NCBI GenBank assembly: GCA_965277805.1
Contig: OZ255842.1
Location: 928,001-992,000 of the forward strand
Reading direction: 5' to 3'
DNA from: Candidatus Lustribacter sp.
GTDB taxonomy: Bacteria; Vulcanimicrobiota; Vulcanimicrobiia; Vulcanimicrobiales; Vulcanimicrobiaceae
Length of the DNA: 64,000 nt
Notes under the pieces: model-generated
The model's input: only the letters and a program-made list of their open reading frames with translations
Told to the model about the DNA's origin: nothing
The model's database searches: none
Part shown: piece after piece, positions 6-45,478 of the stretch
How positions within the stretch are numbered: position 1 is the first letter of the stretch
Layout of the letters: every line of letters starts with the position of its first letter
Made by a program: the position numbers and the translations under genes

Positions 6-1157
6 ATGGCGGGATACATCATCCAGAGCTTTTGGCTCAAGCCCCAAGCGTACACCACCGGACGCTCGAATCAGTCAAGCAGTTTCGGGTCCGATCTGCC
101 GGAGTTCTTGGCGAGTATCAATCAGAGTTCGGGGCCGCGCAAATGGCCGGTCAAGACGTTCCCGCGGCTCACCGGCGCGTCGACGCACGTCGTCATCACG
201 CAGTACGACATTCCCGATCGTCTCGCGCAGCCGCATGACGTTACGGGCACGCCCGACGGCACGATTTGGTTTTCGGATTTCGGCCAGCAATACATCGGCA
301 AGCTGAATCCGCGAACCGGTGCGGTCACGCAGATTCCGGTTCCCCAGAGCAAACCCGGTCACTTTACCGGTTCGCTCGACATCGAAGCGGATCAGAGCGG
401 CGATCTGTGGCTCGCGAACCAATATCAAGGCGCGATCGAACGCTACGATCCCAAGACGAACACGTTCGCGCAATGGGTGATGCCGCCGGGCGATCATCCG
501 GACTTCACGCAAGATTCGATGGTCGCGCCGGACCACAGCAACGTCGACGGCAAAGTCTGGACCAACAATCAGGACACGCGCACGTTCTGGCAACTCGATC
601 CGGCCACCGGGAAGTGGAACTCGTTCGGCCCGCTGCTCTATCCGAATACGAAGACGGTGTTCCGGGCCTACGGCCTGGTCTCGGACCTCAACAATTCGCT
701 CTGGCTGTTCGACTTCGGTGCGTCGGCAATCGCGCATCTCGACCCGAAGACCGGCGCGTTCAAATTGATCCCGACGCCGACGCCGAATTCGCATCCGCGG
801 CGCGGCCGCGTCGACGACCGGACGGGGCTCGTGTGGTTTGCCGAGTTCGCTGCAAACCGCCTCGGGTCGTACGACACCAAAGCCGATGACGGCCACATCA
901 CCGAATACGTGATGCCGACACCGTGGGATGCGCCCTATGACGCCGTTGCCGACAAGAACGGCAACGTGTGGACCGGCTCGATGGTCACCGACCGCGTCTC
1001 ACGCCTCGATCCCGCCACCGGCCGCGTCATCGAGTATCAGTTGCCCACGAGCACGAACATCCGCCGCGTGTGGGTCGACAACAGCACGAACCCGGTGACC
1101 CTCTGGACGGGCAGCAACCACTACGCCGACATCCTCCGAATCGAACCGCTCCCGTAA
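6..1157 (+). CDS. Vgb (virginiamycin B lyase)-like beta-propeller protein, probably 5'-truncated by the window edge
   Basis: Repeated blades such as 'PHDVTGTPDGTIWFSDFGQQYIGKLNPRTG' and 'PYDAVADKNGNVWTGSMVTDRVSRLDPATG'. The frame is open to the window start. Confidence 0.75.
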   Translation: MAGYIIQSFWLKPQAYTTGRSNQSSSFGSDLPEFLASINQSSGPRKWPVKTFPRLTGASTHVVITQYDIPDRLAQPHDVTGTPDGTIWFSDFGQQYIGKLNPRTGAVTQIPVPQSKPGHFTGSLDIEADQSGDLWLANQYQGAIERYDPKTNTFAQWVMPPGDHPDFTQDSMVAPDHSNVDGKVWTNNQDTRTFWQLDPATGKWNSFGPLLYPNTKTVFRAYGLVSDLNNSLWLFDFGASAIAHLDPKTGAFKLIPTPTPNSHPRRGRVDDRTGLVWFAEFAANRLGSYDTKADDGHITEYVMPTPWDAPYDAVADKNGNVWTGSMVTDRVSRLDPATGRVIEYQLPTSTNIRRVWVDNSTNPVTLWTGSNHYADILRIEPLP

Positions 1158-1399
1158 CAACGGGTGAGCCATTGCTCGAACTCGGCGAGACCGTGCGGTT
1201 CGAGCGCATACATGCGGCGCTGCGCATCGTTGCGCACGCGCACCAAGTCGGCGTTGCGCAAGATCTTCAGGTGCTGTGAGACGGCGGGCGGCGTCATGTC
1301 GAAGCGGCGGGCGATTTCGCCGGCCGCGAGTTCGCGTTCGGACAGCATTTCGAGGATGCGGCGGCGCGTGGGGTCGGCTAGGGCTTCGAATGCGTCCAA
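1121..1399 (-). CDS. ArsR/SmtB-family transcriptional regulator, C-terminus possibly truncated
   Basis: 'FEALADPTRRRILEML...AGEIARRFDMTPPAVSQHLKILRNADLV' winged HTH; TTG start; overlaps the 3' end of the Vgb gene. Confidence 0.85.
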   Translation of the reverse strand: MDAFEALADPTRRRILEMLSERELAAGEIARRFDMTPPAVSQHLKILRNADLVRVRNDAQRRMYALEPHGLAEFEQWLTRCYGSGSIRRMSA

Positions 1400-1401
1400 C
1401 G

Positions 1402-1431
1402 GTGGCGGTCCCTCGACAAGCTCTGGATGAC
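1402..1431 (-). repeat. REP-like short repeat, copy 1 (GTCATCCAGAGCTTGTCGAGGGACCGCCAC on the - strand)
   Basis: 29/30 identical to the copy at 56280-56309. Confidence 0.85.
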
Positions 1432-1487
1432 GGTGCGGCTATATTATGGTAGTGGCTTAAATAAGTAAAGTCTTTCGGATATGATGC

Positions 1488-26038: not shown

Positions 26039-26304
26039 CGTATGCGGCAGCGTTATCGTTGGGCCGCGATGCGATCGTGGTGGCGCTGCTCGTGTGCGGG
26101 CCCGCGCTCATCCTAGGCCTCGTCACCGGTCTGGTGATCTCGATCTTTCAGGCGACCACGCAGATCCAAGAACCGACGCTGACCTTCATTCCGAAGATCG
26201 TGGTGGTGGCGCTTGCGATCCTGTTCTTCGGGCCCTTCATGCTGGCGATGCTGACGGATTTCATGTCACGTGTCTTTAGCCAGATACCGCAATACGTGAA
26301 GTAA
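26035..26304 (+). CDS. fliQ: Flagellar export gate FliQ
   Basis: '[20 protein letters not shown]'. Confidence 0.97.
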
Positions 26305-27095: not shown

Positions 27096-27101
27096 CGCGC
27101 G

Positions 27102-28172: not shown

Positions 28173-28197
28173 AGCCCGGAGGCGGTTGTGCCGATAC
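28170..28197 (+). promoter_or_regulatory. Putative sigma28 promoter upstream of flhA
   Basis: TGAA-N16-GCCGATAC in the flhB-flhA gap. Confidence 0.5.
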
Positions 28198-28221
28198 TTT
28201 TAGGGAAGTGCCGGTGACCAA

Positions 28222-30342
28222 ATGGCCGCTGTAGCGTCCCCTGCTCCCAAGCCCCCGAGTCCGACCGTAATGGAACGGATCGCTTCGACTGCCCAGATTT
28301 GGGTAGCCGGGGCTTCGGTCATTCTGGTCGTCTTGATGATCGTGCCCGTGGCGCCATGGGTGCTCGATATTCTGCTGTCGCTGAATATCGCGTTGGCGCT
28401 GGTCATCATGCTAACGTCGCTGTACACGGAGAACGCGCTCGCCTTCAGCGTCTTCCCGACGTTGATCCTGATCGTCACGCTCTTCCGGCTCTCGCTCAAC
28501 ATCAGCGCGACCCGTTCGATTTTGCTGCACGGCTACGCGGGCGAAGTCATCAACCAGTTCGGCGCGATCGTCGTCGGCGGCAACTACGCCGTCGGCCTCG
28601 TGATCTTTGCGATCCTGGTCGTCATCCAGTTCGTGGTCATCACGAACGGTGCCGGCCGCGTCGCTGAAGTCGCGGCCCGCTTCACCTTGGACGCCATGCC
28701 CGGTAAGCAGCTGGCCGTCGACGCCGACCTCAACGCCGGACTGATCACCGAAGCGGAAGCGCGCCAGCGCCGCAAAGACATCCAGCGCTCGGCCGACTTC
28801 TACGGCGCGATGGACGGTGCGTCGAAGTTCGTCCGCGGCGACGCGGTCGCAGCGCTGATCATCGTCTTCGTCAACATCCTCGGCGGCTTCGTCATCGGGA
28901 TCGTGCAGCAAGGGCTCTCGCTCGCGCAGTCGCTGCAAACTTACACGCTGCTGACGATCGGTGAAGGGATCGTCACCCAGATTCCGGCGCTGCTGGTCTC
29001 GACCGCCACCGGTATCATCGTCACCCGTGCGGCTGCCGAGTCGTCGTTCGGCGAAGAGCTGACGAGCCAGCTCGTGCAAGAGCCGCGCGCGCTCGCGATC
29101 GCGGCCGGGCTGCTGGTCCTCTTCGGGCTGTTCGGTCTGCCGACGATCCCGATGTTCATCATGGCCGCGGTGCTCGCGGCGCTGTTCTTCCGGCGGCGCG
29201 CCGCCATTGCGAAAGCGGCGGCGAAACCGGCGCTCGCGCCGGGGGCGGCCACCAACACGCCGGCCGTCAAGCCGGCCGAATCCGTGGTGCCGCTGCTCTC
29301 GTACGATCCGATGGAACTGGAGATCGGCTTCGGCTTGATCCCGCTCGTCGACGTCAGCCAGGGCGGCGATTTGCTCGAGCGCATCACGATGATCCGGCGC
29401 CACGCCGCGCGCGAACTCGGCATCGTGGTTCCGCCAATTCGCGTGCGCGACAATTTGCAGCTCAAGCCGTCGACGTACGTCGTCAAGATTTACGGCCTCG
29501 AGGTCGCGCGCGCCGAAGTGATGGTCAGCCGGCTGCTCGCGATGAATCCCGGCACGGCGACCAACGGCATCGAAGGCATCCCGACCGTCGAGCCGGCGTT
29601 CAACCTGCCGGCACTGTGGATTCCTGAAAGCGGACGCGGCGATGCGGAACTGGCGGGCTACACCGTCATCGATCCCACCAGCGTCATCGCCACGCACCTC
29701 ACCGAGCTGATCAAGACGCACGCGCCGGATCTGCTCGGCCGTCAAGAAACCTCGGCCTTGCTCGACAACGTCAAGCAGCACTACCCGGTCGTCGTCGACG
29801 AACTCGTGCCGGGCCTGCTCACGGTCGGCGAAGTGCAGCGCGTGCTGCAGAATCTCTTGCGCGAGCGCATTCCGATTCGCAACCTGCTGCTGATCCTCGA
29901 GAACCTTGCCGACGGTGCGCGCGCATCGAAGGACGTCGACTTCCTGACCGAACGCGTACGCGCATCGATGGCGCGCCACATCTCGGCGGAATACACCGAG
30001 AACGGCTTGTTGTCGGTCATCACAGTTGACCCGCGACTCGAAACGTTGTTGGGGGAAGCTGCGCGGCGCGGAGAAGACGCCTATGCCTTGCTCGATCCCA
30101 ATACCGTCGCCAAGATCTACGGATCGCTCACCAAACAAATTCAGCACGCGCAGCAAGCGGGTCTGCAGCCGGTCGTGCTCACGTCGCCGCAAACGCGTCT
30201 CGCGCTCAAGCGCCTGACCGAACGCGCGGCCCCGCAACTCGTCGTCTTGTCCTACAGTGAGATCGCGCCAGGCCTGCGGGTCGAGTCGATCGGCCAGATT
30301 TCGACGACCGCTGATGATTCAATCGAGCCGGTTGGAGTGTAA
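28222..30342 (+). CDS. flhA: Flagellar export protein FlhA
   Basis: 'RVAEVAARFTLDAMPGKQ', 'FYGAMDGASKFVRGDA', 'LQNLLRERIPIRNL'. Confidence 0.98.
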   Translation: MAAVASPAPKPPSPTVMERIASTAQIWVAGASVILVVLMIVPVAPWVLDILLSLNIALALVIMLTSLYTENALAFSVFPTLILIVTLFRLSLNISATRSILLHGYAGEVINQFGAIVVGGNYAVGLVIFAILVVIQFVVITNGAGRVAEVAARFTLDAMPGKQLAVDADLNAGLITEAEARQRRKDIQRSADFYGAMDGASKFVRGDAVAALIIVFVNILGGFVIGIVQQGLSLAQSLQTYTLLTIGEGIVTQIPALLVSTATGIIVTRAAAESSFGEELTSQLVQEPRALAIAAGLLVLFGLFGLPTIPMFIMAAVLAALFFRRRAAIAKAAAKPALAPGAATNTPAVKPAESVVPLLSYDPMELEIGFGLIPLVDVSQGGDLLERITMIRRHAARELGIVVPPIRVRDNLQLKPSTYVVKIYGLEVARAEVMVSRLLAMNPGTATNGIEGIPTVEPAFNLPALWIPESGRGDAELAGYTVIDPTSVIATHLTELIKTHAPDLLGRQETSALLDNVKQHYPVVVDELVPGLLTVGEVQRVLQNLLRERIPIRNLLLILENLADGARASKDVDFLTERVRASMARHISAEYTENGLLSVITVDPRLETLLGEAARRGEDAYALLDPNTVAKIYGSLTKQIQHAQQAGLQPVVLTSPQTRLALKRLTERAAPQLVVLSYSEIAPGLRVESIGQISTTADDSIEPVGV

Positions 30343-30345
30343 ACG

Positions 30346-31029
30346 ATGGGCTTTCTAGGATTGTTTGGGAAGGCGGCGCCCTCGACCAAGCAACTCCGCG
30401 AGATGCTCCCATCGCTGCATAGTTTCGTGGACGTCGTGGTTCGCAACGGGCCGAAGGGCTCCGTCTGCTTTGAAAACGCGGGCACCAAGACGTTCACGAC
30501 GAGCGTGCTGCCGGGCATGTCGCCCGGACAGCAAGTGAGCTTCAATTACTCAAACACGGGCGGCAAATACCGCTTCAGCGCGGCGATCAAATCGGTCGAC
30601 GATAAGCAAGCCACCTACGAGATGCCCGGCAAGATCGAGACCGTGCAGAAGTTCGGCGGCACGCGCAAGCGCACGACCGTGCGCATCGATACGACCGTTT
30701 CGGTGCAATGGCGGTATGGCTCGACCGGCAAGATCGAAAGCGAATGGCAGAAGGGCGTGCTGAGCGATATCAGCCGCAACGGCTCGTCGCTGGCCTGCGA
30801 CCGCGAGATCAAGACCGGCAATATCATCGAGTTGAAGATTCCGCTCGCAACGGACGGCGGCGCGCCGATCCTCGTGCGCGGCGATGCCCGGCGCATCGAC
30901 AAGATCGAGAACACGTCGAAGTACAACGTGGGCCTGGCCTTCCATCCGCTCCGGCCCGAAGCGGAACGCGCCATCATCGAGTTCATCAATCGCCGTCAAG
31001 TCGACCTACGCAACCGCGGCCTCGGTTAA
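30346..31029 (+). CDS. PilZ-domain flagellar brake protein (YcgR/MotI-like)
   Basis: c-di-GMP motifs RxxxR ('RKRTTVR') and DxSxxG ('DISRNG'). Confidence 0.82.
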   Translation: MGFLGLFGKAAPSTKQLREMLPSLHSFVDVVVRNGPKGSVCFENAGTKTFTTSVLPGMSPGQQVSFNYSNTGGKYRFSAAIKSVDDKQATYEMPGKIETVQKFGGTRKRTTVRIDTTVSVQWRYGSTGKIESEWQKGVLSDISRNGSSLACDREIKTGNIIELKIPLATDGGAPILVRGDARRIDKIENTSKYNVGLAFHPLRPEAERAIIEFINRRQVDLRNRGLG

Positions 31030-31319: not shown

Positions 31320-32657
31320 ATGGTGACCGGCCTCAAGCCGGGAGCCGTCGGAGTGGTCGAGTTTTCCGACCTGCTGGCCAACGGGCAGGCCGTCGGGCGA
31401 TTCGACGGGATGGTCGTGTTCGTCGACGGACCGTTGCCGGGCGAACGCGCCCGCATCCGGTTGACCGAGGTGAAGGCGAAATACGCAGTCGGCGAAGTAC
31501 TCGAACGCGAGACGACCTCGCCCGACCGCGCCGAACCGTTCTGTCCCGTCTTCGGTGCCTGTGGCGGCTGTCAGGTGCAGCACCTCTCGTATCCGGCGCA
31601 GCTCGGGTGGAAGCACCGGATCGTCAAGGACGCGCTGCTGCGCATCGGTGGGTTTTCGGACCTCGCGGTCAACGAGCCGATCGGCATGGACGTGCCGCGC
31701 GCGTACCGCAATAAGATGGCGCTGGTCGTGGAAGACGGCGTATTCGGTTTCTACCGCGCGCGTTCGCACGAATTGGTGCCGATCGATCATTGCCCGATCG
31801 TGCTCGAACCGCTCGATGCGGCGATCGGCGGTCTGCTCGCGGCTGCGCACGCGCCGGAAACGTCGGCGGCGTTCAGCAACGTCAAGCACGTCGTGATGCG
31901 CGCCGGCTTGACGTCGCCCAACAGCGTGCTCTCGCTAACGACCGATACGAAGTCGGCCGCGATCGCCGCCGCAGCGCCGCAGATCGCCGAGCGCATCGAG
32001 GGTGTCGGCGGGATCAGCAACTCGTACGAACCGGCGAATGCGAACGCGGTGATCGGCCGCCGCATGGACTTCGTCTGGGGCAAACGCGAGATGGAAGAGA
32101 CGATCGAAAACGTTCGTTTCCGCGTCTCGCCGGCGTCCTTCTTCCAGATCAACGGTGCTATGGTGGCGTCGATCTTTCGCGCGCTCGCACCGCTGATCGC
32201 GGGCACGCCGCGCATCGTCGACCTCTATTGCGGGGCCGGGACGTTCGCGATCTACTTCGCCTCGCGCGGCGCCTCCGTCGTCGGGATCGAAGAGAACGCG
32301 TCGGCCGTAACCGAAGCGCGCGGCAACGCTCGCCTCAACAAAGTCGAAGACCGCGTGCGATTCGTGCAGGGCCGCGTCGAGGGCGCGCTCGCGAACGAAG
32401 AAGGCCGCAAGGCATTGCGTGAGGCCGAGATCGTGTTCTTGGATCCGCCGCGCAAGGGCAGCGACGAGGCGACGCTGGCCGCGCTTGCCGATGCGAAGGT
32501 GCCGGCGATTTGGTATCTCTCGTGCAATCCGGCGACCTTGGCGCGCGACTTGCGTTACCTCGCCGGCCGCGGTTACGGCATCGGTTTGGTCCAGCCGTTC
32601 GATATGTTCCCGCAAACGGGGCACGTCGAGACGCTGGTGACGCTCACTCGAAAATGA
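31320..32657 (+). CDS. rlmD: 23S rRNA (uracil-1939-C5)-methyltransferase
   Basis: TRAM domain, Fe-S 'CPVFGACGGC', 'SFFQIN', 'DLYCGAG', 'DPPRKG', 'YLSCNPATLARD', 'DMFPQTGHVE'. Confidence 0.95.
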   Translation: MVTGLKPGAVGVVEFSDLLANGQAVGRFDGMVVFVDGPLPGERARIRLTEVKAKYAVGEVLERETTSPDRAEPFCPVFGACGGCQVQHLSYPAQLGWKHRIVKDALLRIGGFSDLAVNEPIGMDVPRAYRNKMALVVEDGVFGFYRARSHELVPIDHCPIVLEPLDAAIGGLLAAAHAPETSAAFSNVKHVVMRAGLTSPNSVLSLTTDTKSAAIAAAAPQIAERIEGVGGISNSYEPANANAVIGRRMDFVWGKREMEETIENVRFRVSPASFFQINGAMVASIFRALAPLIAGTPRIVDLYCGAGTFAIYFASRGASVVGIEENASAVTEARGNARLNKVEDRVRFVQGRVEGALANEEGRKALREAEIVFLDPPRKGSDEATLAALADAKVPAIWYLSCNPATLARDLRYLAGRGYGIGLVQPFDMFPQTGHVETLVTLTRK

Positions 32658-33114
32658 CGTCGTAAGCGAACGTCATGCGCCCGCCGGGCACAAGCGGTGC
32701 CGGCGCGCTCCAGCGAATCGCATCGAATTCCGACGGCAGTGCGCGGCGCAGCGTCGTGGCGCCCCCGGGATTCGTCACGCGCACCATCGGCGCGGCGGCC
32801 CACGTTTTGCCGCCGTCGACCGAATACTCGGCGTTTGAACCGGCCGTACCGTCGACGTAGCGTTCACCGGCCGGAATCTTGACGACCGGTGAGAGGTTCG
32901 CCGCGGGGCGGTCGCCGGCGTTGTGTGCTACGATCGTGTAGCGCACGCGCTGGCCGGGTTTGGTGATACCGCTCACCGGCTTTGATACGAGATTGCCGCT
33001 TTGCGCTTCAATCAACGATGCCGACTGCACGAGTTCGACGAGCGCAGCTGCGCGTGCCGCGCAGGGAATCAACCCGAACATTAAGGCGGCGAACGCAATC
33101 GCTATCGATTTCAC
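32644..33114 (-). CDS. Secreted single DUF11-like Ig-domain protein
   Basis: Signal peptide (ARA); 'PGQRVRYTIVAHNAG', 'YSVDGG', 'IRW...LVPGGRMTFAYDV'. Confidence 0.8.
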   Translation of the reverse strand: MKSIAIAFAALMFGLIPCAARAAALVELVQSASLIEAQSGNLVSKPVSGITKPGQRVRYTIVAHNAGDRPAANLSPVVKIPAGERYVDGTAGSNAEYSVDGGKTWAAAPMVRVTNPGGATTLRRALPSEFDAIRWSAPAPLVPGGRMTFAYDVIFE

Positions 33115-33299: not shown

Positions 33300-35723
33300 T
33301 TGACGGCGTTTTTACGTCGTCGAGTTTATGTTGTTCTCGCGATCGCTTGTATCGCGATGCTCTTCGTCTTTGCCGGCGAGACCGTCGCGCGAGCCGCGAC
33401 GGCAGCCGGCACGACGATCAACAATTCAGCGAGCGCGACCTATGTCGACCCCGCCGTTCCAGGAACGACTCTTTCAACGACGTCGAACGTCGTTACCATC
33501 CGCGTTGCGGAAGTCGCGGGCATCACCGTCGTAGCGCACGCGATCGGCGCGGTCGGCGGCGGCGTGATCGTGCCGGGCGGACAGGTGAACTTCGACTTCA
33601 CCGTCACCAACACGGGCAACAACACCAATAGCTTCTCGATTCCCAACACCGCGCTCGTCAGCGGCACGGCCGGTTCGACAATTGTCGGAACGCCGCAGAT
33701 CAGTTACGACAACGGCGTGACGTGGACGCCGCTCGCGACCGCCGCCGGAACGTTCAGCGGCAGCGGCACCACCGCGCGTCTGCAGACGACGCCGATCGCG
33801 CCCAACGGCACGGTGCTCGTACGCATCGTCACGAGCGTTCCGGCCGGTGCGACGCAGTCGTCGACGATCAACGTACAGCTCGGCAATACGGGGCCGAACG
33901 ACAACAGCGCCGCGACGCAAAATCAGAATTACAACGCGGGCGACGCGGGCAACGTCTTCACGACCAACAACGCCGGGACGCCGCCGCCGGGGCCGCCGCT
34001 CAACGGTCAGCGCGAAGCGGCCGCGCTCTCGTCCACGACCGTCACCGCGCGGCCGCAGGCGTTCGCCCAGATCCTCAAGAGCGGCGCGATCGCAACCGCC
34101 AATATCAACCCGCAACTGAGCACGGTCACCTACTCGCTCACGCTCAACGTGCTCGCGAGCTACCCGAGCGCCGGGCCGGCCTATATCGCCGCGCCGTTGA
34201 CCGGAACGCCGATCTTGCTCAATGGTGCCGCCGCTACGCGCGTGCTCGTTTCCGACGTCGTGCCGGCGCAAACGGTGCTGAGCGCGGTCGCGACGCCGCC
34301 GCCGGGCTGGACCGTCATCTACTCGACCGACATCACCAGCGTTGCGAACGTCGCATCGTTCACGAGCACCGCGCCGCCGAGTTTGAGTACGGTGAAACGC
34401 ATCGGCTGGATCGCGCCCGGACCGGTTCCGCTCGGCGCGTCGGTCACGGGATTCAACTTCACCGTTCTCGCGAGCGGCGTTCCGTCCAACGCGTCGAGCA
34501 CGCTGCTCAACTTGGCGCAAGTGTTCGGTCAATCGCAGGGCGATGCGACGAATCTGCTGGTCTACGATCAGTCCGGCGATCAGGAACCGAGCCAATTCAC
34601 GGCCGGTAACGGCACGCCCGGTTCGAGCACGCCGCTCGGCACGGCGCCGTCGAACGGCGTTGCCCCGGCATCCGGACCCAACGATCCGGGCGCGAATACC
34701 GGCGGCGCCGGCGGCGACAACAACGTCGTCCCGCTCAACCCGCAGACCTCGCTCGTCAACGGACCCAACGGCGTGCCGGGCGCGGTCGGTTCCGACGGCA
34801 CGACGACGACCGACGTCACGTATCAGTCGGTGACGGTGCCGCAGGGTTTGGCGCCGGCATCCGGGCTGCCTAGCCCGCTCCAATCGACGTTCACCAATAG
34901 CGTCGGCAACCAGGGCACGGTGCCGCTCCAAAACGTGACGCTCGTGCCGCAATCACCGGCCGTCGCAAACGCGCTGCCCAACGGCACGACGGCGGCGATC
35001 TCGTGGGGCGGTCAGTCCGTTCCGGCGCTCTACACCTACACGGCATCCGGCGGCTGGGTGCTCACGAGCGGAACCGCGATCTCGATACCCACGATCGCGG
35101 CGAGCGGCGTACAGAACTACACCGTCGTCGTCACGCTGCCGGCGGGCACCGCGCAATCGACCAACGGCGGCGTCGCAGCCGGCGGATTCGGGATCCCGAT
35201 CCTGGCTGCGTCGACCACCGGCTTTGGTGCGAGCTCGAACCTCACGACCGATACCGTCTTCACCGGCTTCGTCAAGCTCACGAAACTCGCGCAGGTGTTC
35301 AACGCCGACGGCTCGCCGTGCGACGTCGCGCCGGTGGCCGCACCGAATCCGGCGTGCGTCGTCGCCGGTAATTTCGTGCAATACACGATCCAGTACTCGA
35401 ACATCATCCCGGCGGCGAGCGGTAGCGGCAGTTCCGCGCCGAGCGCGCTGCGGATGGTGATCACCGAGGACGGCGCCGCGGCTCCCAACACGTTCGCGAC
35501 GCTGCTCGACGGCGTGGTCGTGACCAGTCACGTCAAGGGTTCTGCGACGGATACGCTCGCGGCTAACGTCATTACGTTCTTCAACGCGGTTGGGCAGAAC
35601 GTCGGCGACATCGCGGGCAGCGGCACCGCGACGGGCGACGTGACGAAGTACATCGACACGTTCGCCGCGCCGCTCGCGCCGGGCGCAACCGGCACGTTCA
35701 CCTTCAAGCGGAAGATCAACTGA
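33300..35723 (+). CDS. Large secreted DUF11-type beta-sandwich protein (putative major fibre subunit)
   Basis: SD GGAGGAG, signal peptide, N-terminal 'AGTTINNSASATY', 'FTVTNTGN', C-terminal 'LAPGATGTFTFKRKIN'. Confidence 0.8.
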   Translation: MTAFLRRRVYVVLAIACIAMLFVFAGETVARAATAAGTTINNSASATYVDPAVPGTTLSTTSNVVTIRVAEVAGITVVAHAIGAVGGGVIVPGGQVNFDFTVTNTGNNTNSFSIPNTALVSGTAGSTIVGTPQISYDNGVTWTPLATAAGTFSGSGTTARLQTTPIAPNGTVLVRIVTSVPAGATQSSTINVQLGNTGPNDNSAATQNQNYNAGDAGNVFTTNNAGTPPPGPPLNGQREAAALSSTTVTARPQAFAQILKSGAIATANINPQLSTVTYSLTLNVLASYPSAGPAYIAAPLTGTPILLNGAAATRVLVSDVVPAQTVLSAVATPPPGWTVIYSTDITSVANVASFTSTAPPSLSTVKRIGWIAPGPVPLGASVTGFNFTVLASGVPSNASSTLLNLAQVFGQSQGDATNLLVYDQSGDQEPSQFTAGNGTPGSSTPLGTAPSNGVAPASGPNDPGANTGGAGGDNNVVPLNPQTSLVNGPNGVPGAVGSDGTTTTDVTYQSVTVPQGLAPASGLPSPLQSTFTNSVGNQGTVPLQNVTLVPQSPAVANALPNGTTAAISWGGQSVPALYTYTASGGWVLTSGTAISIPTIAASGVQNYTVVVTLPAGTAQSTNGGVAAGGFGIPILAASTTGFGASSNLTTDTVFTGFVKLTKLAQVFNADGSPCDVAPVAAPNPACVVAGNFVQYTIQYSNIIPAASGSGSSAPSALRMVITEDGAAAPNTFATLLDGVVVTSHVKGSATDTLAANVITFFNAVGQNVGDIAGSGTATGDVTKYIDTFAAPLAPGATGTFTFKRKIN

Positions 35724-37159
35724 TGGCGCGCATCGTTCGCAGCGCGCTGGCGCTGATCGCCGCTCTCACGCTCGCAACGGCCGCACCGTTCGTGGTCTCG
35801 GCCGCGCCGACGCTGGTCAATGCCGCTTCGGCTTCGTACGATCCCGGCAACGGGACGCTCGTGCAAGTGCAGTCGCCGAGCACGCTGACGCAGGCGAACC
35901 CCTCGCTGACCGTCACCTCCGCGATCACCGCGTGTCAGGGCGGACCGCTCACCGATTACACCGGCTGGAGCATCGGGCTCTACAACGCCGATGCGCTGGG
36001 CAATCCCACCACGGCGCTCGCGCTGACGCGCACACAGCTGCCGGTGTTGCCGGCGGTTCCGCTGCCGGCCGGCATCGCGCCGAACAACCAGAACCTCGAC
36101 CCGTTCACGGTGACGAACGGTAACGTCGGGATCTACGCGTTCCTGCTCGACACTGCGACCGGCGAAACGGCACCGCAAACGTTCGTCTTGATCACCAACG
36201 CACCGGCGACGTCGTCGCTGCCGAAGCGCCGCGTCAAGATCGTGCTCGGCGCGACCACCGGCGCAAATGTGGCGTATACCGCGACCGCGCTCGACAATAT
36301 GGCCGTCAATGCCCTCTCGCCGGCGCAAACGGTCACCGGCACGTTCCCCATCGTGCGCACGAGCGCGAACGGAAACTTCGCGGTCTTCCAGCTCGCCGTG
36401 AGCGAGTGCCCGAGCAACGCCATCGGCATCACCAAGACGGCGAACGTCACGACGGCGCAGGTCGGCGATACGGTCGTCTATTCGGTTGCGGTCACGAACC
36501 AGTCGCTGAGCGCGATCACGGCGCCGACGATCACCGACATTCTGCCGCTCGGTTTCGTCTACGTCAACGGCTCCGTCCGCGCCGGCCTTGCGAATTCGGC
36601 CGTGCCGGCGACCGCGACCGTCGCTGGCGGCCGTCTCGTGATGACGACCACGGCCTCGATTCCCGCGGCGTCGGTGCTGACGTTCGTCTACGCGACGGTG
36701 CTCTCACCCGACGCTCTCAAGGGCACGGGGCAGAACGTCGCCGTCGCCGACGGCACGCTCGGCTCATCACCCGTGCACGGCGGGCCCGCGACGTTCACGC
36801 TCAAGGTCGATCCCGGCTTGTTGAGCGACTGCGGCACGATCATCGGCCGCGTGTACGTCGACAAGCCGCTGCAGGGCATCGACCGGCGTCAACAGCCCGG
36901 CGTTCCGGATGCGGTCGTGTTCTTCGACGACGGCGTGCGGGTGAAGACCGACAAGAACGGGCTCTATCACTATCCGGGCTGCGCGCATCCGGGCTGGCGC
37001 ACGGCGGCGCTCGATCTCACCAGCGTGCCGGGGATGACGCTCGCGCCGAACATCTACATCGCGGCGCGCAACGGCCAATCGCAGTGGGCACATCTCGAGC
37101 CGAGCGGTTTGGTGAAGATCAACTTCGCCGTCGTGCCGGCCAAGGGCGCCGCGAAGTGA
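35723..37159 (+). CDS. Secreted DUF11 + SdrD-B-like domain protein
   Basis: 'ITKTANVTTAQVGDTVVYSVAVTN...ITDILPLGFVYV'; 'IIGRVYVD...GVPDAVVFFDDG...TDKNGLY'. Confidence 0.8.
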   Translation: MARIVRSALALIAALTLATAAPFVVSAAPTLVNAASASYDPGNGTLVQVQSPSTLTQANPSLTVTSAITACQGGPLTDYTGWSIGLYNADALGNPTTALALTRTQLPVLPAVPLPAGIAPNNQNLDPFTVTNGNVGIYAFLLDTATGETAPQTFVLITNAPATSSLPKRRVKIVLGATTGANVAYTATALDNMAVNALSPAQTVTGTFPIVRTSANGNFAVFQLAVSECPSNAIGITKTANVTTAQVGDTVVYSVAVTNQSLSAITAPTITDILPLGFVYVNGSVRAGLANSAVPATATVAGGRLVMTTTASIPAASVLTFVYATVLSPDALKGTGQNVAVADGTLGSSPVHGGPATFTLKVDPGLLSDCGTIIGRVYVDKPLQGIDRRQQPGVPDAVVFFDDGVRVKTDKNGLYHYPGCAHPGWRTAALDLTSVPGMTLAPNIYIAARNGQSQWAHLEPSGLVKINFAVVPAKGAAK

Positions 37160-40100
37160 CGCCGTTTACGCGGCGCAGCCTCGCGCTGATTGCCATGCTT
37201 TCGCTCGCGCCCGTGGCGTTCGCGCGCGCCGCGGACAACCCGCCGGCGGCCGGTGTCGCGCTGGTTGCGGCCGCACCGCTGATTGTCGAACCGGCCACCG
37301 GTTCCGTGTTGGACAAACCGTCGACCGACGTCGTCGTGCGATCGGCGCCCGGCGATAAGGTGCAGTTGATGGTCAACGGCGTCGCCGTCAAAGACGATCA
37401 GATCGGTGTCCTCGGACGTGCCGATGACGGCAGCCAGGTTGAAACGTGGATCGGCGTGTCGCTCGATTCCGGCCGCAACGTCATCAGCGCGCGCGTCGAT
37501 CGCGGCACGGGCGCGTCCGCTCCGGTCGAGAGCATCGTGAACGTTCGCGGCAGTGCGAAGAAGCTGGTGCTGAAGGCGAGCCGTATGTCGGCGCCGGCTG
37601 ACGGCCGCACGAACATCTCGATCAGCGGTCAGCTGATGGACGGCAACAACCTGCTCGCCGCGCGCGACGGCATGGTGCGCCTGGCCGCGACCGCGGGCGA
37701 CTTCGTCGGCGATAGCGCGCAACCCGAAATGCCGGGCTTCTACGTGCGAGCCCATGACGGGCAATTCAACGCCGTCCTGCGCGCGCCGCTGCATTCGGGC
37801 ACGGCCCACATCACGGCGTCGATGGCGAACCTCACGGCGACGCTCGACCTCGAGATGACGACGGAACTGCGCCCGAGCATCGCGACCGGCGTAGTCGACC
37901 TGCGCTTCGGCGCGCGTCAGTCGGACTTCTACAAAAGCATCTCGACGTTCTTAGACGGCGATCCGAGTTTCAAACCGGAACTGCAGACGTCTGTCTTTGC
38001 CACCGGGAAGGTCGGCAACTACCTGCTCACAGTGGCCGGCGACAACCTTTATCCGATCAACCCGCCGTGCGACGGCCGGATCGGCGTCACCACGTACGAA
38101 CAACAAGCCGCCTGCACCCCGCAGTACCCGATCTACGGCGATGAGTCGACGTCGACGCGTCTCGCGCAGTCTAGCGACAACGTGTTCTTCCGGCTCGAGC
38201 GCGAGCGGACGTACGCGATGTGGGGCGACTACGACACCAAAGAGTGGGCGTCGGCCACGCAGCTCTATTCGGCAACGCAGATGAACCTGCACGGCGCCAA
38301 GCTCAACTACGAGCCCGGCAAACTCGAAATCGCGAGCTTCTACGCCAACAACATCCAGGCGTTCCAGCGCGATTCGATCGCACCCGACGGCACGAGCGGC
38401 TACTACTACCTCTCGCACCAGCTGGTCGTTCCGGGCAGTGAAACCGTGTTCGTCGAGGCGCATCTCTTCAATCAGCCCGGCGTCATCGAAACGGTCACGC
38501 CCTACGTGCGCGGCATCGGCTACGACATCGACTACGATAACGGCCAGATCTTGTTCCACAACCCGATCGTGCGCACCGACATCGACCCGCAAGGCCGTGT
38601 GATCGTCAACGTGATCGTTGCGACGTACGAATACGACGGCGGTCAAGGTTCGGGCGACATGGTAGGTGGGCGCGTGCGCTACCGTTCGTTCATTCCGCAA
38701 AACGATACGCAGACGCCGTTCTCGATCGGCGCATCGGTCGTGCACGAGAACATGGGCGACGCGTCGTTCACGCTCAACGGCGTCGACGCCGGCGCGCCGC
38801 TCGGCAAGATCGGAAAGCTGATCGCAGAGTACGCGCAATCGAGTAACGACGCGAGCGCGTCGGGCGCGGTCACCGGCAATGCCTATCGCCTCGAGGCCGC
38901 ACTGCAGTCCGGGAAGACGACCGGTAACGCGTACTACCGCACCACGACCGCCGGGTTCTCGAACAACGCGACCACGAGCTTCACGCCCGGCGAAACGCAG
39001 CAAGGCCTGAACTTCGATACGCCGGTAGCCCATCACACGAGCGCGTTCCTCACTTATGATCGCGAACGCGAGAACGGCATCGCGCCGGAAGTCCTCACCG
39101 ATCCGGAAGATCTGCTGCTGCCCGGCAACGCGCAGGTTCCGGGCGCGCCGGTCAACACCGACTACATGACGCTCGGCGGCGGCGTACGGCAACTGATCGG
39201 CACGGGCAAGCTTTCGCTCGAATATGACGTGCACGAGCAGACCGACTTCAACGAGCCGCTGGTCGACACCAATTCCTCGCAGCTCATCGCGCGCTACTTG
39301 CAGCCGTTCGGCAAACGCTTCACCTTCTTGGCCGAAGACGACATCAATCTGCGCTCGCAGGTCGATCCCTTGTATCCCAGCCGCTTCGCGCTCGGCCTCG
39401 AGTACAGCGTGGCTCCGGGCGTTGCCGTCGCCGCGACCCATCAATACATGAAAGACTTGCAGAGCGGACCGCAGACCTTCAACACGATCGAAGCCATGGC
39501 CGATGACAAACTCGACGCGAACACGTCGTTCACCGGGCGCTATGCGATTCTCGGCGGCCTCGACGGGTACGATGCGACGAGCGCCTTCGGCCTCAAGCAT
39601 CTGTTCAGGATCGCGAAGGGCGTGAGCGCGAGCGCGGCCTACGAATACCTCAACGGCAGCGTCTTCGATCTCACGCCGTCCGGCATGCAGTTCGCACAGC
39701 CCTACGCGGTCGGCCAGCAAGGTACGACGGCGCTCGGGATCAGCGGCGGTACGAGCCTCAGCCTCAGCACGACCTATGCCGGCAGCCAGTACCTCAAGGG
39801 CTCGGCACGCTACGAGCACCGCGTCTCCGACCAGGGTTCGAATACGACGTACAGTTTCGGCGGCGCGGGCAAGCTCTCCGACGCGGTGTCGCTCTTGGCG
39901 GGCTTCGATTCCGCCGGCGGCGCCAATCAAACCTTGGGCGGGCTCGCGGCCAGTTCCGATTTCCGCGTTGGTGCCGCCTATCGCAATCCATACACAGATA
40001 CGACGAACGCGCTCTTGCGCTACGAGATCGACGTCAATCCGGGCATCACGCCGGCCACATTGCTGCAAGGCGCGGGCACCTGGACGAAAGACAATACGCT

Positions 40101-40557
40101 CGCGCTTGAAGTGCTGCACGACCCCTCGCAACGGCTCGAACTCTACGGCAAGTTCGCCTTCCGCGCAACGACGGCGTATCTGTCGGGTGATTTCTCCAAT
40201 GCCACGTACACGTCGCTTGCGCAGGCGCGCGCTACGTACCGCGTCGGACGGCGCTGGGATACGACGTTAGAATTGCGCTGGATCGCGCAGAACGTCACCT
40301 ACTACAGCGCCATCGGTGAAGTGGCCGAAGCCGGTTACGCGTTCGGTGACGATCTGCGCGGCGCGATCGGCTGGTCGTTTGGCCAGACCAACGATCCGGC
40401 GTTCTTCGGCTCAAACGGCCGCGGCGGCATCTACTTCGACGTCACCGCGCGTATTCACGAACTGTGGCCGGGCTTCGGCCTGCAGAAGGCGCCGCTCGCC
40501 GATCTCACCGCTACCGGCGTTCCCGCCGCAGCCGCCGTACCTGTGGGGCGCAAGTGA
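37156..40557 (+). CDS. Large putative outer-membrane beta-barrel protein with N-terminal Ig-like (invasin-type) domains
   Basis: GTG start overlapping the upstream stop; signal peptide; 'PADGRT' Ig-like motif; 'YPIYGDES'; long run of amphipathic beta-strands ending 'GGIYFDVTAR'. Confidence 0.72.
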   Translation: MTPFTRRSLALIAMLSLAPVAFARAADNPPAAGVALVAAAPLIVEPATGSVLDKPSTDVVVRSAPGDKVQLMVNGVAVKDDQIGVLGRADDGSQVETWIGVSLDSGRNVISARVDRGTGASAPVESIVNVRGSAKKLVLKASRMSAPADGRTNISISGQLMDGNNLLAARDGMVRLAATAGDFVGDSAQPEMPGFYVRAHDGQFNAVLRAPLHSGTAHITASMANLTATLDLEMTTELRPSIATGVVDLRFGARQSDFYKSISTFLDGDPSFKPELQTSVFATGKVGNYLLTVAGDNLYPINPPCDGRIGVTTYEQQAACTPQYPIYGDESTSTRLAQSSDNVFFRLERERTYAMWGDYDTKEWASATQLYSATQMNLHGAKLNYEPGKLEIASFYANNIQAFQRDSIAPDGTSGYYYLSHQLVVPGSETVFVEAHLFNQPGVIETVTPYVRGIGYDIDYDNGQILFHNPIVRTDIDPQGRVIVNVIVATYEYDGGQGSGDMVGGRVRYRSFIPQNDTQTPFSIGASVVHENMGDASFTLNGVDAGAPLGKIGKLIAEYAQSSNDASASGAVTGNAYRLEAALQSGKTTGNAYYRTTTAGFSNNATTSFTPGETQQGLNFDTPVAHHTSAFLTYDRERENGIAPEVLTDPEDLLLPGNAQVPGAPVNTDYMTLGGGVRQLIGTGKLSLEYDVHEQTDFNEPLVDTNSSQLIARYLQPFGKRFTFLAEDDINLRSQVDPLYPSRFALGLEYSVAPGVAVAATHQYMKDLQSGPQTFNTIEAMADDKLDANTSFTGRYAILGGLDGYDATSAFGLKHLFRIAKGVSASAAYEYLNGSVFDLTPSGMQFAQPYAVGQQGTTALGISGGTSLSLSTTYAGSQYLKGSARYEHRVSDQGSNTTYSFGGAGKLSDAVSLLAGFDSAGGANQTLGGLAASSDFRVGAAYRNPYTDTTNALLRYEIDVNPGITPATLLQGAGTWTKDNTLALEVLHDPSQRLELYGKFAFRATTAYLSGDFSNATYTSLAQARATYRVGRRWDTTLELRWIAQNVTYYSAIGEVAEAGYAFGDDLRGAIGWSFGQTNDPAFFGSNGRGGIYFDVTARIHELWPGFGLQKAPLADLTATGVPAAAAVPVGRK

Positions 40558-43500: not shown

Positions 43501-44426
43501 AAATCAACACCGGCGGCACGATCACGTGGCAGTTGAACTACGCCAACACGGGAACGACCGCGGCGACATCGACCGACTTCATCGACATCCTGCCCTACTC
43601 GGGCGACACGCGCGGCAGCAGCTTCCACGGAACGATCACGCTCGTGTCGGCAGCGGGCACCAACGGCGAAACGCTGCAGTACACGAAGCAGCCGCCAGCG
43701 CAAATCAACGAGGATCCGGGCTGCACGTCCAACGGCGGCGTCGTGACGCCGCCGACCGGTGGCTGTCAGAGCTTCAGCGCCGCGACCTGGTGCCCGGCGC
43801 TGAGCGGCGGCGCGTGTCCGTCAACGCTCGCGCAAGTGACGGCGATTCGGATCGGCGGCGGCGCGTTGCCGGGACCGTCCGGAACGCGCACGATCACCGT
43901 GCAGGCGAGCACGAGCGGTAACGTCTTTACCGATGTGTACTGGAACACGTTCGGCGCCCGAACGAGCATCTTGACCCTCGGCGTGCATTCGCCGCCGGTC
44001 GAGACGATCGTGCCGACGCCGCCGACGGCATTCCTCACGCTCGTGAAGTCGTGCCTCGCGCCGCCGACCTGCATCACCGCATCCCAAGCGCCGGGAACCG
44101 ACATTACCTACGGCATCTCCGCGACCAACACCGGCGGCCACGCATCGGCGCAAGTGGTGATCACCGATCCGATGCCGCCGAACATGGACTTCAAACTCGG
44201 CACGGCGTCGGCCACGTTCCCGGGCGGCGTGACGATCGTGATCTCCTATAGTTCCGATCCGGCATTGTCCACGTTCACGTACGCGCCGGTCAGCGGCGGC
44301 GGCGGCGCGGCGACGGGATACGATCGCAACGTCACCGGCGTGCGCTGGACGATGACGGCCGGGCAACTTGCTGCCGTCGGCGTGAACGATTCCGGCAGCG
44401 TCCAATTCACGGCGGCAATTCGATGA
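40554..44426 (+). CDS. Large secreted multi-DUF11 adhesin-like protein
   Basis: Signal peptide (ALA); tandem 'K-T...G....(Y/F)T...N.G...D.LP' repeats, paired Cys, T/S/G-rich; ends 'SGSVQFTAAIR'. Confidence 0.82.
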   Translation: MKLRRVFTALLVLVLFGSMLQRPLPALAAPPLLDVITLDPLAAGSSGQTGTVPFDATSFNPGGGTNPGTDSSATDHIVRTNDTIAYDFQYSVNSAPGLNITLTSVLGQYLGADVADWTTIPAGCGAGSSISGDGQTLVCDIGAVAQGSAQDVIASAKIRVTAPNGATIAPSITVDDPGNVGTVPVTNAGYWINQSTPSTTTMDTITSVGKYNAMKQSAVAKPVIEPYTYFGDGGVQGYYIDFPVLVREGDGTAGGKYGIAPAGSPITITDTLSPGLNSTLALSNACGINGSGITIQNEPYGAIGVTGSATSANSVVNSGTITCTQAGGAGTPVTITITGANTSGSSFPVNKAGSAGIDNLTYVVAGYLRLWVPDTTGNLGATGNVQGFSDTYTGIDPGEPDELPANLTATTNLTAEGPAGASGNGGKAFFQTTSENGFPFNNSNGPALTAGSPLVSVFEFNNTSSASTGSVTINSLTACDTIDTAHILVTPFSGAAGFATDSLWGGAVHLSNLNGGSFTDGSPPAGFTVSYGDSSTAADCTTGTFKASASDASFTALNPIARVKFTMTSLAPGQELRVQLSQTVNSGLAAGTIVHNTVTATGTASTGGPAFSRTASTTGQIFTTNLGITKYLFKNVAGAGVFNANGTQPPGASGRSSGTAGLVDTNQEIVAALDDDGSQGTLPSSNVVTCDIVPPNMSIKDFDLVTNTTPVTGPVTFLTVSGTAPSSELVEYSTVPTFGGDSCTDAGGGWTSTEPSPRSAITRVRVTYTLPAETRERIFVNFQVASSAAPNTLITNNTVTTVGGVNLQTATQSVTVEPETVSVTKTGPSGSVTAGTPASFTIQGYVQGPGSPQSGTVTVVDTLPVGLTYVPSSTVLTNPPAPTTWQSGSDNATPVITMSGPNQVLTWTLGTATANPGVFIQLPTITFSTNTDISLSGGTLMNSATIVDTADGNPGGPNHTATASVLVSNPGAFHISKTTTTPQINTGGTITWQLNYANTGTTAATSTDFIDILPYSGDTRGSSFHGTITLVSAAGTNGETLQYTKQPPAQINEDPGCTSNGGVVTPPTGGCQSFSAATWCPALSGGACPSTLAQVTAIRIGGGALPGPSGTRTITVQASTSGNVFTDVYWNTFGARTSILTLGVHSPPVETIVPTPPTAFLTLVKSCLAPPTCITASQAPGTDITYGISATNTGGHASAQVVITDPMPPNMDFKLGTASATFPGGVTIVISYSSDPALSTFTYAPVSGGGGAATGYDRNVTGVRWTMTAGQLAAVGVNDSGSVQFTAAIR

Positions 44427-45478
44427 ATCGCATACAACGGGTCTTGATCGTTCTCGGCGCAAGCGCCGCGCTCGCAGCGTGCGGCGGCGGCGGTAACACG
44501 TCGTCGTTCGGCGGCACGACGTTCACCGTCTCCGGATCGGGCGGCCCGGCCCCGGCGCCGACCGCGACGCCGATTCCCGGACCGGTCACGGTGACCGGAA
44601 CGATAACGCAAATTACGAACACCAGCTTTGGCCCCACCGCACCCCAGTTGCCGCTCGGCGGTGCGGTGGTCGTCATCGGTCCGGCGCTCGTGCCCGGTGC
44701 AACGCCGCCGCCGGTTCCGCCGGCCGGCGACGTGCAGGTAACGACGTCGGCGAACGGCACGTACAGCGCGACGCTGGCGTCCGGTCCCGCACCCTCGTTG
44801 TCCGCGCAAGCCTCGTACGATTTTCCCTTGAACAATCTCGCGGGCGTGACGCCGCCGGCAAGCGGTTATTACATCAGCGTGTTCGCAGCGGGCAGCGACG
44901 GCAAAACTGCCGGCGCGCCGCTGCCGGTGCACGCATTTTCGGGACTCGGTGCCGGCAACGTTCTCGCGACGCAACGCGTGACGACGGCGACGCCCGATGA
45001 AGCGAACTTCCTCGCGCTCGTCAACACCGATCGCACGACGGCGAACCCGCTCGCGCTGCCGATGATCTTCGATGAGTACGCGGAGGAAGCAGCGCGCCTG
45101 CACGCCACCGACGAAGCGACGAACAACTACTACTGCCACTACGATACGCAGAACCGCGGCCCCGGTTCGCGCTATCTTGCGCTGCTGGCCCTCGGGCAAG
45201 ACAACGAGAACATCGGCAAGACCTCCGGCACCGATGCGGTTGGTTCGTACACCGTCACCGAAGCCGCGTTCATGGCGGAATCTTCGACGAACGGCGGCCA
45301 CTACACGAACATCATCGATTCGACGCACGCTTGGGCCGGTGTCTCGACGGTCGTGGCCGGCCCCTCCGCGCAGTACGTCGACCAGGAATTCGTGTCGCCG
45401 CACGGCACCGACCCCTACGTCTACCCGAATTTCACCGGCTCCGCGTGCCCGCCCGGCGTGGTCCCGAACAACTCGTAG
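44423..45478 (+). CDS. Lipoprotein with a C-terminal CAP (SCP-like) domain
   Basis: Lipobox 'ALAAC'; 'AARLHATD...YYCH', 'ENIG', 'GHYTNII'. Confidence 0.78.
   Translation: MNRIQRVLIVLGASAALAACGGGGNTSSFGGTTFTVSGSGGPAPAPTATPIPGPVTVTGTITQITNTSFGPTAPQLPLGGAVVVIGPALVPGATPPPVPPAGDVQVTTSANGTYSATLASGPAPSLSAQASYDFPLNNLAGVTPPASGYYISVFAAGSDGKTAGAPLPVHAFSGLGAGNVLATQRVTTATPDEANFLALVNTDRTTANPLALPMIFDEYAEEAARLHATDEATNNYYCHYDTQNRGPGSRYLALLALGQDNENIGKTSGTDAVGSYTVTEAAFMAESSTNGGHYTNIIDSTHAWAGVSTVVAGPSAQYVDQEFVSPHGTDPYVYPNFTGSACPPGVVPNNS

Follow-up and report, generated by a model that had tools for sequence, protein, structure and literature searches.

The shaft gene and its product

The window analyzed here is a stretch of 64,000 nucleotides from Candidatus Lustribacter sp. 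(contig OZ255842.1, positions 928,001 to 992,000). It contains five translationally coupled genes, which encode a putative fiber shaft subunit, a protein that we call P2, a 1,133-amino-acid outer-membrane-type protein, an adhesin, and a CAP-domain lipoprotein. Our subject is the shaft subunit, whose last domain appears to lack the strands that its own N-terminal hairpin could supply and whose conserved residues suggest that such subunits could be joined to one another by a Lys-Asn isopeptide bond. The gene and its parts are as follows.

33300..35723, + strand: shaft subunit gene (P0001), 807 amino acids, TTG start, signal peptide in codons 1-32
33396..33506, + strand: N-terminal donor hairpin, residues 33-69, recognized from conservation, couplings, homology to P2, and four permuted or fused relatives
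34065..34595, + strand: DUF7925 domain, residues 256-432, Pfam PF25546, E 9.4e-45
35229..35720, + strand: C-terminal acceptor domain, residues 644-807, recognized from an AlphaFold2 model, VIA-align, and conservation

A preliminary description of this DNA had begun the open reading frame (ORF) at position 33396. The true start is the TTG at 33300, with GGAGGAG 6 nucleotides upstream. Residues 1-32 make up a Sec-type signal peptide (RRR, a hydrophobic stretch, and ARA), and base 33396 belongs to codon 33, directly after ARA, the first residue of the mature protein; N42 is therefore the 10th mature residue. The three sequence strings that the earlier proposal quoted from this protein are all present in the translation of 33300-35723: TINNSA (T39-A44), FVKLTKLAQ (F657-Q665), and MVITEDG (M719-G725). 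The donor hairpin comprises a strand at about residues 40-49, which carries N42 (codon 33423-33425), and one at about residues 56-68, which carries S62 and N63.

DUF7925 is the sole domain of the shaft protein that Pfam recognizes, and the score (153.1 bits against a cutoff of 26.5) places the protein within PF25546. The domain has a complete triad of its own, K260, D319, and N404, conserved in 217, 231, and 233, respectively, of about 250 nongap rows. The family was built from a Nostoc protein and is described as CnaA-like with a predicted intramolecular Lys/Asp/Asn bond (Costa et al. 2025, PMC12617251); in the supplement of that paper, 109 of 154 AFDB domains are predicted to be bonded. The DUF7925 domain of the shaft protein is accordingly predicted to be a CnaA-like domain with an intramolecular isopeptide bond involving K260, D319, and N404.

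The acceptor domain carries K662 (codon 35283-35285) and E723 (codon 35466-35468), and the chain terminates in ...TFTFKRKIN, immediately past the last strand. There is no LPXTG-type sorting signal at this terminus, no sortase family was found among the neighboring gene products scanned, and the shaft protein has no Pfam or NCBIfam match to the TasA/BsaA family. An insertion between the first two strands of the domain contains C674 and C686 (window 35319-35357). Cys occupies the two columns together in 10 of 69 sequences, a pattern suggestive of a disulfide specific to one clade.

Fold of the C-terminal domain

The C-terminal domain (residues 644-807) was folded alone with AlphaFold2 from an alignment of 25 sequences (A3). 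The resulting model, with a predicted local distance difference test (pLDDT) score of 85.2 and a predicted template modeling (pTM) score of 0.80, has seven strands: K662 is on the first (model positions 15-24), E723 is on the third (77-81), and the last spans 154-163. No Asn strand follows this last strand, where the chain ends. The first ten residues of the model, N647 included, have a pLDDT of about 48. By comparison, a solved CLIPPER domain has nine strands (PMC12617251). Lys, acid, and Asn do not lie in one contiguous domain here; the Asn at the corresponding position, N42, is at the opposite end of the chain.

About 30 of 50 rows returned by VIA-align for this model, counted by title, are pilins or adhesins. 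They include CppA (Z 8.3), BcpA (Z 7.7), AgI/II (Z 7.3), RrgB (Z 7.2), the CLIPPER structure 9IFR (Z 7.1; root mean square deviation 2.2, 91 aligned), SpaA (Z 6.6-6.8), GBS104 (Z 5.9), and RrgA with its engineered split form Jo.In (Z 5.8-6.0). In RrgB, AgI/II, and GBS104, the aligned range begins at the Lys strand and ends 3-12 residues short of the Asn: 187..307 in RrgB 2x9z (triad K193/D241/N318) and 180..680 in GBS104 3txa (triad K188/D597/N692), with triads from Table 1 of PMC12617251, and 1334..1466 in AgI/II 3qe5 (triad K1334/D1383/N1469, PMC12617251, in 3OPU numbering that we assume to be shared). In a second VIA-align listing, the best alignment of 3QE5 was to the preceding domain. The same pattern is seen with the triads that we take to be K199-N321 in SpaA (row 195..311), K191-N695 in RrgA (row 185..683), and K1082-N1232 and K1259-N1393 in SspB (rows 1076..1220 and 1255..1386).

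The seven-strand model and these superpositions support a truncated CnaA-type fold in which the Lys and acid strands are kept and the chain is cut before the Asn strand. The claim of an incomplete C-terminal domain that retains its Lys and acidic residues is thus supported. The accompanying term "CnaB-like" is to be replaced by CnaA-like, the class in which DUF11 domains are placed by Costa et al. 2025 (PMC12617251).

The N-terminal hairpin as the missing end of the last domain

In four permuted or fused relatives (P0141, P0153, P0158, and P0249), a single chain runs on from the end of the C-terminal domain (...F.R.VN) into the motif ..TAG..I.N.A.ATYEDP...AEVAGITV, which represents the hairpin and domain 1. 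The equivalents of N807 and N42 are 10 residues apart in all four, and the shaft protein of the window, once cleaved after ARA, reproduces this spacing. With N42 as the 10th mature residue, the split protein thus corresponds to the single-chain form opened at a single loop and provided with a signal peptide. These relatives are 991 to 2,440 amino acids long, and on visual inspection their flanks resemble Calx-beta, beta-helix-repeat, and RTX sequences. They have the look of single-chain adhesins, which could be either the ancestors or the descendants of the split subunit.

Covariation was measured by mean-field direct coupling analysis of columns 33-79 and 640-807 in 231 sequences (effective number of sequences, 172). 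N42-K662 is the top inter-segment pair, at rank 24 of 22,155, and Y48-G656 (rank 29) and A46-V658 (rank 55) follow in the same antiparallel register. The ladder 42-48 x 656-662 is the first of 13,284 seven-residue ladders (z 6.1). It remains first, with a score of 3.58, after removal of P0026 and P0034, two divergent members discussed below, and the best ladders in 20 shuffles, in which N-terminal segments were dealt to other sequences, scored 2.0-3.45. A ladder of 58-64 x 647-653 suggests that the second hairpin strand packs against residues 647-653. Couplings 41/43-64, 46-60, and 49-56 indicate that the N-terminal segment is a hairpin, and the couplings V658-M719 (rank 2) and D724-K783 (rank 9) place E723, not D724, on the core face. 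The permuted and fused relatives, together with the covariation that sets N42 opposite K662, uphold the earlier claim that the Asn strand sits apart at the N terminus, and they support the identification of the missing strands of the last domain as the protein's own N-terminal hairpin.

A different partner for K662 might lie in its own chain. If it bonded N647, N730, or N/D786, the product would be an ordinary intramolecular isopeptide, and the hairpin would merely pack. N647 is conserved in 254 of 273 sequences, couples to K662 at rank 28, and is altered in both sequences that lack the Lys, P0026 and P0034; N730 is also altered in P0026. Neither of the other two residues shows a comparable signal, as N730-K662 stands at rank 659 and N/D786-K662 at rank 13,936, which amounts to no coupling. 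N647 itself lies upstream of the Lys strand, in the stretch of low pLDDT, and nothing corresponds to it in the CnaA triads of solved structures, in which the Asn comes after the last strand of the alignment. The ladder register, moreover, sets N42 and not N647 opposite K662. We regard an own-chain partner as very improbable.

Conservation of the triad

In an alignment of 69 shaft-family sequences (A1), N42 is kept in 68, A44 in 69, K662 in 68, and E723 in 67. Other residues of the strings in which the triad had been sought are less conserved (N41, 8/69; K659, 34/69; D724, 55/69), and the triad proposed earlier narrows to N42, K662, and E723. When 260 proteins were aligned to the family hidden Markov model (HMM), 243 were full length with the hairpin at the front. 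The combination of N, K, and E or D is kept in 239 of these 243, as N/K/E in 228 and as N/K/D in 11. The four exceptions, read at positions 42/662/723, are P0026 (D/N/R), P0034 (S/Q/E), P0163 (S/K/E), and P0260 (N/K/G). Thus, an Asn on the N-terminal strand and a Lys and an acid in the acceptor are conserved together, as they are in BsaA-type fibers. Across the whole protein, no Lys column other than K662 reaches 85% conservation, and in 173 of 200 members tallied the last residue of the chain falls exactly at the N807 position. Two further residues, S62 and N63 on the second hairpin strand (window 33483-33488), are invariant (69/69); S62, N63, and N647 may face the pocket in which the triad is buried.

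The only members without K662 are P0026 and P0034, and both are among the three without N42. In these proteins, of 798 amino acids each, N42, N647, and K662 have been lost together, with E723 and N730 missing as well from P0026, and the pair may represent a non-covalent offshoot. The double loss may be a single event, because both sequences come from a 12,601-bp contig (JGI). A metagenome scan for this contig matched only relatives that were 34-46% identical. Lys is replaced by Thr in two of the four fused forms, as against its loss in two of 243 split forms, a comparison of small numbers and related sequences. The direction is the one to be expected if the bond mattered most where no backbone joins the strands.

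Donor-only and acceptor-only partners

Four coupled genes follow the shaft gene, and one gene lies divergently before it.

35723..37159, + strand: P2 (P0002), donor-only protein, 478 amino acids, characterized by Pfam DUF11, a match to 9IFR, and conservation
37156..40557, + strand: outer-membrane-type protein, 1,133 amino acids, with a signal peptide and an immunoglobulin (Ig)-like N-terminal part; GTG at 37156 overlaps the P2 stop codon
40554..44426, + strand: adhesin, acceptor-only, 1,290 amino acids; GTG at 40554 overlaps the stop codon of the outer-membrane protein gene
44423..45478, + strand: CAP/SCP-domain lipoprotein, 351 amino acids; ATG overlaps the adhesin stop codon; lipoprotein-type signal (...LAAC)
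32644..33114, - strand: small secreted single-domain DUF11-like protein (P0125), 156 amino acids; weak DUF11 match, E 1.3e-4

The ATG of P2 overlaps the stop codon of the shaft gene (TGATG at 35723). P2 consists of a signal peptide, an N-terminal hairpin motif (LVNAASASYDP) with the donor Asn N33 (codon 35819-35821), a complete DUF11 domain (ITKT / ITDILP / GQNVAV), and a conserved C-terminal domain; it has no shaft-type end domain. The donor Asn is kept in 69 of 75 orthologues and D272 in all 75. Comparison of the shaft hairpin with the P2 N terminus by hhalign gave 89% and E 2e-6; the same program found no match between the 44-residue hairpin and the P2 DUF11 profile, for which the query is too short. 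When a hairpin HMM was applied to 57 loci of more than 20 kb, 52 of them yielded two ORFs each, neither more nor fewer, and a motif scan of the window's genome found the hairpin in the shaft protein and P2 only, plus one unrelated match. P2 is proposed to be a terminator or anchor.

In the adhesin, the last domain (44037-44423) carries a K in LTLVKS and a D in VITDPMP, the chain stops after ...SVQFTAAIR, and no donor hairpin motif was found in the protein. These findings agree with the preliminary description, in which the domain was said to keep both residues and to lack the Asn strand. It covers only positions 10-55 of the 114 in the DUF11 profile, and TIGR04226 matches the adhesin at residues 851-976 (E 2.5e-11). 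In the more distant loci L009-L086, a fifth conserved gene follows that of the outer-membrane protein, or barrel; in L012, for example, it lies at 18706-22228 and its product ends in ...NSYGFIRFRAKVK. Among 40 related loci with a complete downstream ORF, 31 have an acceptor-type end in the product of this gene, with K and D each present in 31/31. The products are secreted proteins of 787-1,184 amino acids that vary in their N-terminal parts and end in ...SYGF[IV]RFRAKV[KN], and a tip adhesin is their likely identity. Because Lys and acid are conserved here in a protein without an Asn strand of its own, the Asn would come from another chain; this is the strongest comparative argument for insertion in trans.

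The hairpin might instead fold into the C-terminal domain of its own chain, giving a closed and possibly covalently cyclized monomer and no polymer, with P2 pairing only with the small acceptor-like protein or the adhesin. Nested CnaA-type domains assembled from distant segments do occur in tip pilins, such as that formed by residues 137-211 and 587-717 of GBS104 (PMC12617251), and both the covariation and the fused forms would fit such closure as well as they fit exchange between chains. Closure would, on the other hand, require a ring of at least five Ig-like domains. The fused relatives look as if one subunit's end had been connected to the mature start of its successor without the gain or loss of a residue (the 10-residue spacing in 4/4), and the acceptor-only and donor-only proteins of the operon need a partner from another chain. 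We consider closure in cis unlikely, and the trans reading seems to us the better account of these sequences.

The small protein P0125, which is divergent to the shaft gene in the window, is encoded on the same strand between shaft and P2 genes in cyanobacterial loci. Its chain also stops right past the F-type strand, and the C-terminal domain of the adhesin matches its family (hhalign 93.6%, E 2e-7). The family lacks an acid at the catalytic position, and the copy in the window also lacks a Lys on the first strand. A possible role for it is that of a non-covalent acceptor, acting as a cap or in a chaperone-like way; speculatively, it could cap without a covalent bond or keep hold of hairpins that are free.

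A conserved protein of this kind makes it seem that non-covalent acceptors exist, and shaft subunits could likewise be joined in trans without a bond, as in chaperone-usher or TasA fibers, with N42, K662, and E723 kept for packing or hydrogen bonding. The single losses in P0163 (S42) and P0260 (G723) would be compatible with this, and BsaA N35A oligomers resist sodium dodecyl sulfate even without the bond (PMC11580942). A buried Lys, Asn, and Glu at the canonical CnaA triad positions are nevertheless hard to explain otherwise than by bonding, K662 is the single most conserved Lys, and the loss of Lys in fused more than in split forms, with the caution on numbers and kinship given above, points the same way. 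A purely non-covalent assembly therefore strikes us as improbable.

A proposed route of assembly

We consider it fairly probable, though far from assured, that the hairpin enters the C-terminal domain of another subunit and is locked there by a Lys-Asn bond. After Sec export, the hairpin of one subunit would insert into the unfinished C-terminal domain of another, head to tail. Insertion would set N42 beside K662, with E723 buried alongside, and the isopeptide would then form autocatalytically with loss of ammonia. The product would be a covalent fiber one subunit thick, made without a sortase. An acceptor-only adhesin (or the small acceptor-like protein) would occupy the distal end, donor-only P2 would plug the last shaft subunit and halt growth, and the 1,133-amino-acid outer-membrane protein would serve as a platform for export and anchoring. 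That the N-terminal extension matches the strands missing from an Ig fold is supported; that it fills their place in another subunit is something that we infer, as we do the formation of the bond, the arrangement of the parts, and what the barrel does. The split subunits probably join head to tail into a surface fiber.

Several observations weigh against this proposal. The triad is not universal, given that P0163 retains K662 but has S42, and that position 723 is G in P0260. The N42-K662 coupling depends on P0026 and P0034 and falls to rank 873 without both, and N647, which is altered in this pair too, has a coupling to K662 that is almost equally strong. The agreement of the covariation and the fused forms with closure in cis, noted above, also counts here. 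A Foldseek search of the C-terminal domain model against the PDB returned nothing at E ≤ 0.001, and the VIA-align scores are middling (Z 5.8-8.3), with an unrelated AP-4 mu domain as the top row (Z 9.0). The C-terminal domain is not a Pfam DUF11 domain: PF01345 matched 0 of 25 members at E ≤ 1. Finally, no periplasmic chaperone that might prevent premature polymerization was found among the 16 neighboring products scanned.

The likeness of the C-terminal domain to DUF11 is remote, seen in an hhalign match of 52% to the P2 DUF11 profile and in language-model features of 0.90 to DUF11 clusters. The earlier designation of this domain as DUF11-type survives only in that sense. No Pfam family matched positions 35229-35720 at E ≤ 10, and profile searches of the PDB gave no row for the shaft protein and one row, at E 0.5, for the C-terminal domain.

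More tentatively, and as a possibility that we hold with less than even confidence, the locus could represent one branch of an undescribed class of pilus in diderm bacteria (Cyanobacteria, Armatimonadota, and one Eremiobacterota genus), built of self-locking multidomain subunits without a chaperone, usher, or sortase. Such a pilus would be exported past a giant outer-membrane protein and would run from an acceptor-only tip adhesin to a donor-only terminator, as a natural, polymerizing counterpart of SpyTag/SpyCatcher.

Distribution and genomic context

Counted as representatives of 50% clusters, the shaft family has 482 members at E ≤ 1e-30, a number that rises to 2,352 at E ≤ 0.001; in genomes taken one per species, 486 places were confirmed. 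PF25546 is present in every homologue listed, and the named members are almost all from Cyanobacteria, with some from Armatimonadota. The homologue search found no longer relatives covering shaft region 600-807, a null result of little weight. Within the window's own phylum, the gene was found in two of seven further genomes of the genus, whereas none of 200 other genomes sampled had it. A quick tree places the shaft protein of the window on a very long branch (1.29) near members from Armatimonadota and Leptolyngbyaceae. Together, these observations may point to an old lateral acquisition into this lineage.

In the 78 more distant loci (L009-L086), tblastn recovered P2 homologues in 76 loci, and it located the outer-membrane protein and the small protein in 73 and 74, respectively; the gene order is shaft, small protein, P2, barrel. 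Loci without partners include L016, L028, and L077 (truncated, with the barrel alone missing), L045, and the lone shaft copy L053. L053, a second locus of Aliterella atlantica, holds a lone shaft paralogue with no P2, barrel, or small protein nearby; a full locus, L033, is present in the same genome.

The 1,133-amino-acid outer-membrane-type protein has no Pfam or PDB family beyond its Ig-like N-terminal part. An Invasin_D3 match (E 0.0015) is below the cutoff, and its language-model features are at 0.98 to clusters named TonB-dependent receptor and hypothetical. The sequence alone had no match in the PDB, and its profile found no usher there; the profile matches were confined to GH2-type glycosidases, in their C-terminal domains of Ig-like type (best E 2.8e-4). 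From its place in the conserved gene order, we propose that it may be an assembly or anchoring barrel. The CAP/SCP lipoprotein, the last gene of the coupled run, is common only to the close relatives L007 and L008. Upstream of the operon, a flagellar run (FliM, FliN-type, FliP, FliR-type, FlhB, and FlhA) is followed by a PilZ-domain protein (window 22939-31029), and a tRNA (U5) methyltransferase-like gene (31320-32657) lies between this run and the fiber operon.

Comparison with known systems

Chaperone-usher pili, such as type 1 and P pili, are built from subunits with an N-terminal extension and an Ig-like fold that lacks its last strand, and their operons encode an outer-membrane platform. 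Their tip adhesin is an acceptor without an extension, and their terminator has an extension without a usable acceptor. This logic of parts, which also appears in PMC11821415, matches the window operon, but the proteins do not: no usher (PF00577) or chaperone (PF00345) match was found in the genes scanned. The chaperone-usher links are also non-covalent and donate one strand, whereas a hairpin of two strands would be donated here. Two other candidates were set aside. "Tafi" (PMC11821415) is not relevant, because its "DUF11" matches are to DUF1102; the Microcystis CT pilus, as described in PMC12397347, has a different small pilin, and a PDB search gave no sequence link to P0125.

An intermolecular N-E-K lock is not without precedent. 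In the "exchange and lock" of donor strands in Clostridium perfringens BsaA, N35 lies on the donor strand and K74 and E56 lie in the acceptor; the lock was shown by mutagenesis, in that Ala mutants lose oligomers, the intermolecular isopeptide is spontaneous and needs no sortase, and triad-less paralogues exist (PMC11580942). BsaA, a member of the TasA family, is similar to the shaft protein in that an N-terminal Asn strand enters the next subunit and the acceptor contributes Lys and Glu. As described there, it is a single-domain subunit of an unrelated fold family, from a Gram-positive cell with a SipW peptidase. Here, by contrast, the subunit is a multidomain protein of about 770 amino acids with a two-strand hairpin and a probable CnaA-type fold, the hosts are diderms, and the operon includes an outer-membrane protein of 1,133 amino acids as well as an adhesin that is acceptor-only and a proposed terminator that is donor-only. 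The threads of Sulfolobus Saci_0406 likewise combine donor strands with a proposed intersubunit isopeptide formed without a sortase (PMC9715654). According to that account, the bond links the N-terminal alpha-amine of Asp24 in subunit n+2 to Asn57 in subunit n; these threads differ in having no Lys/Glu triad, in their fold, and in belonging to an archaeon without an outer membrane.

Sortase pili (RrgB, SpaA, and BcpA) are also covalent fibers one subunit thick, made of CnaA/CnaB Ig-like domains, on the middle ones of which the C-terminal domain model superposes (Z 6.6-7.7). In these pili, a sortase links a C-terminal Thr to the Lys of a pilin motif, and Lys-Asn bonds occur within single molecules; in the shaft protein, unlike these, the Lys-Asn triad itself would be the link between subunits. 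The CLIPPER (DUF11) fibrillar adhesins, with DUF7925 and 9IFR, share CnaA-like domains and a Lys/acid/Asn triad with our proteins, and both P2 and the adhesin carry DUF11. The permuted giant relatives would be ordinary single-chain versions, as the CLIPPER adhesins are. The CLIPPER work describes only intramolecular bonds in the text available (PMC12617251), whereas in the shaft protein the terminal domain is divided over the two ends of the chain. Our literature search did not find the gene cluster described as a fiber, and DUF7925 was mentioned once, as a predicted intramolecular isopeptide domain (PMC12617251). The design of a self-locking, split-domain fiber may not yet have been described for double-membraned bacteria.

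If the bond forms between subunits, diderms, with common cyanobacteria like Nostoc and Anabaena among them, would build covalent pili by a route that differs from those of the sortase, chaperone-usher, type IV, and type V systems. Autocatalytic isopeptide chemistry in the CnaA fold would then extend from an intramolecular staple to a fiber-building link, and a conserved five-gene cyanobacterial cluster without an assigned function would have a testable account. SpyTag/SpyCatcher and the Jo.In form of RrgA (5mkc) are man-made split CnaA/CnaB domains that reconstitute and bond spontaneously. Jo.In is among the fold matches of the C-terminal domain (Z 5.9-6.0, chain 183/185..683), and what we propose here is a natural, polymerizing version, which, if true, would offer protein engineering natural tag/catcher pairs with a two-strand tag.

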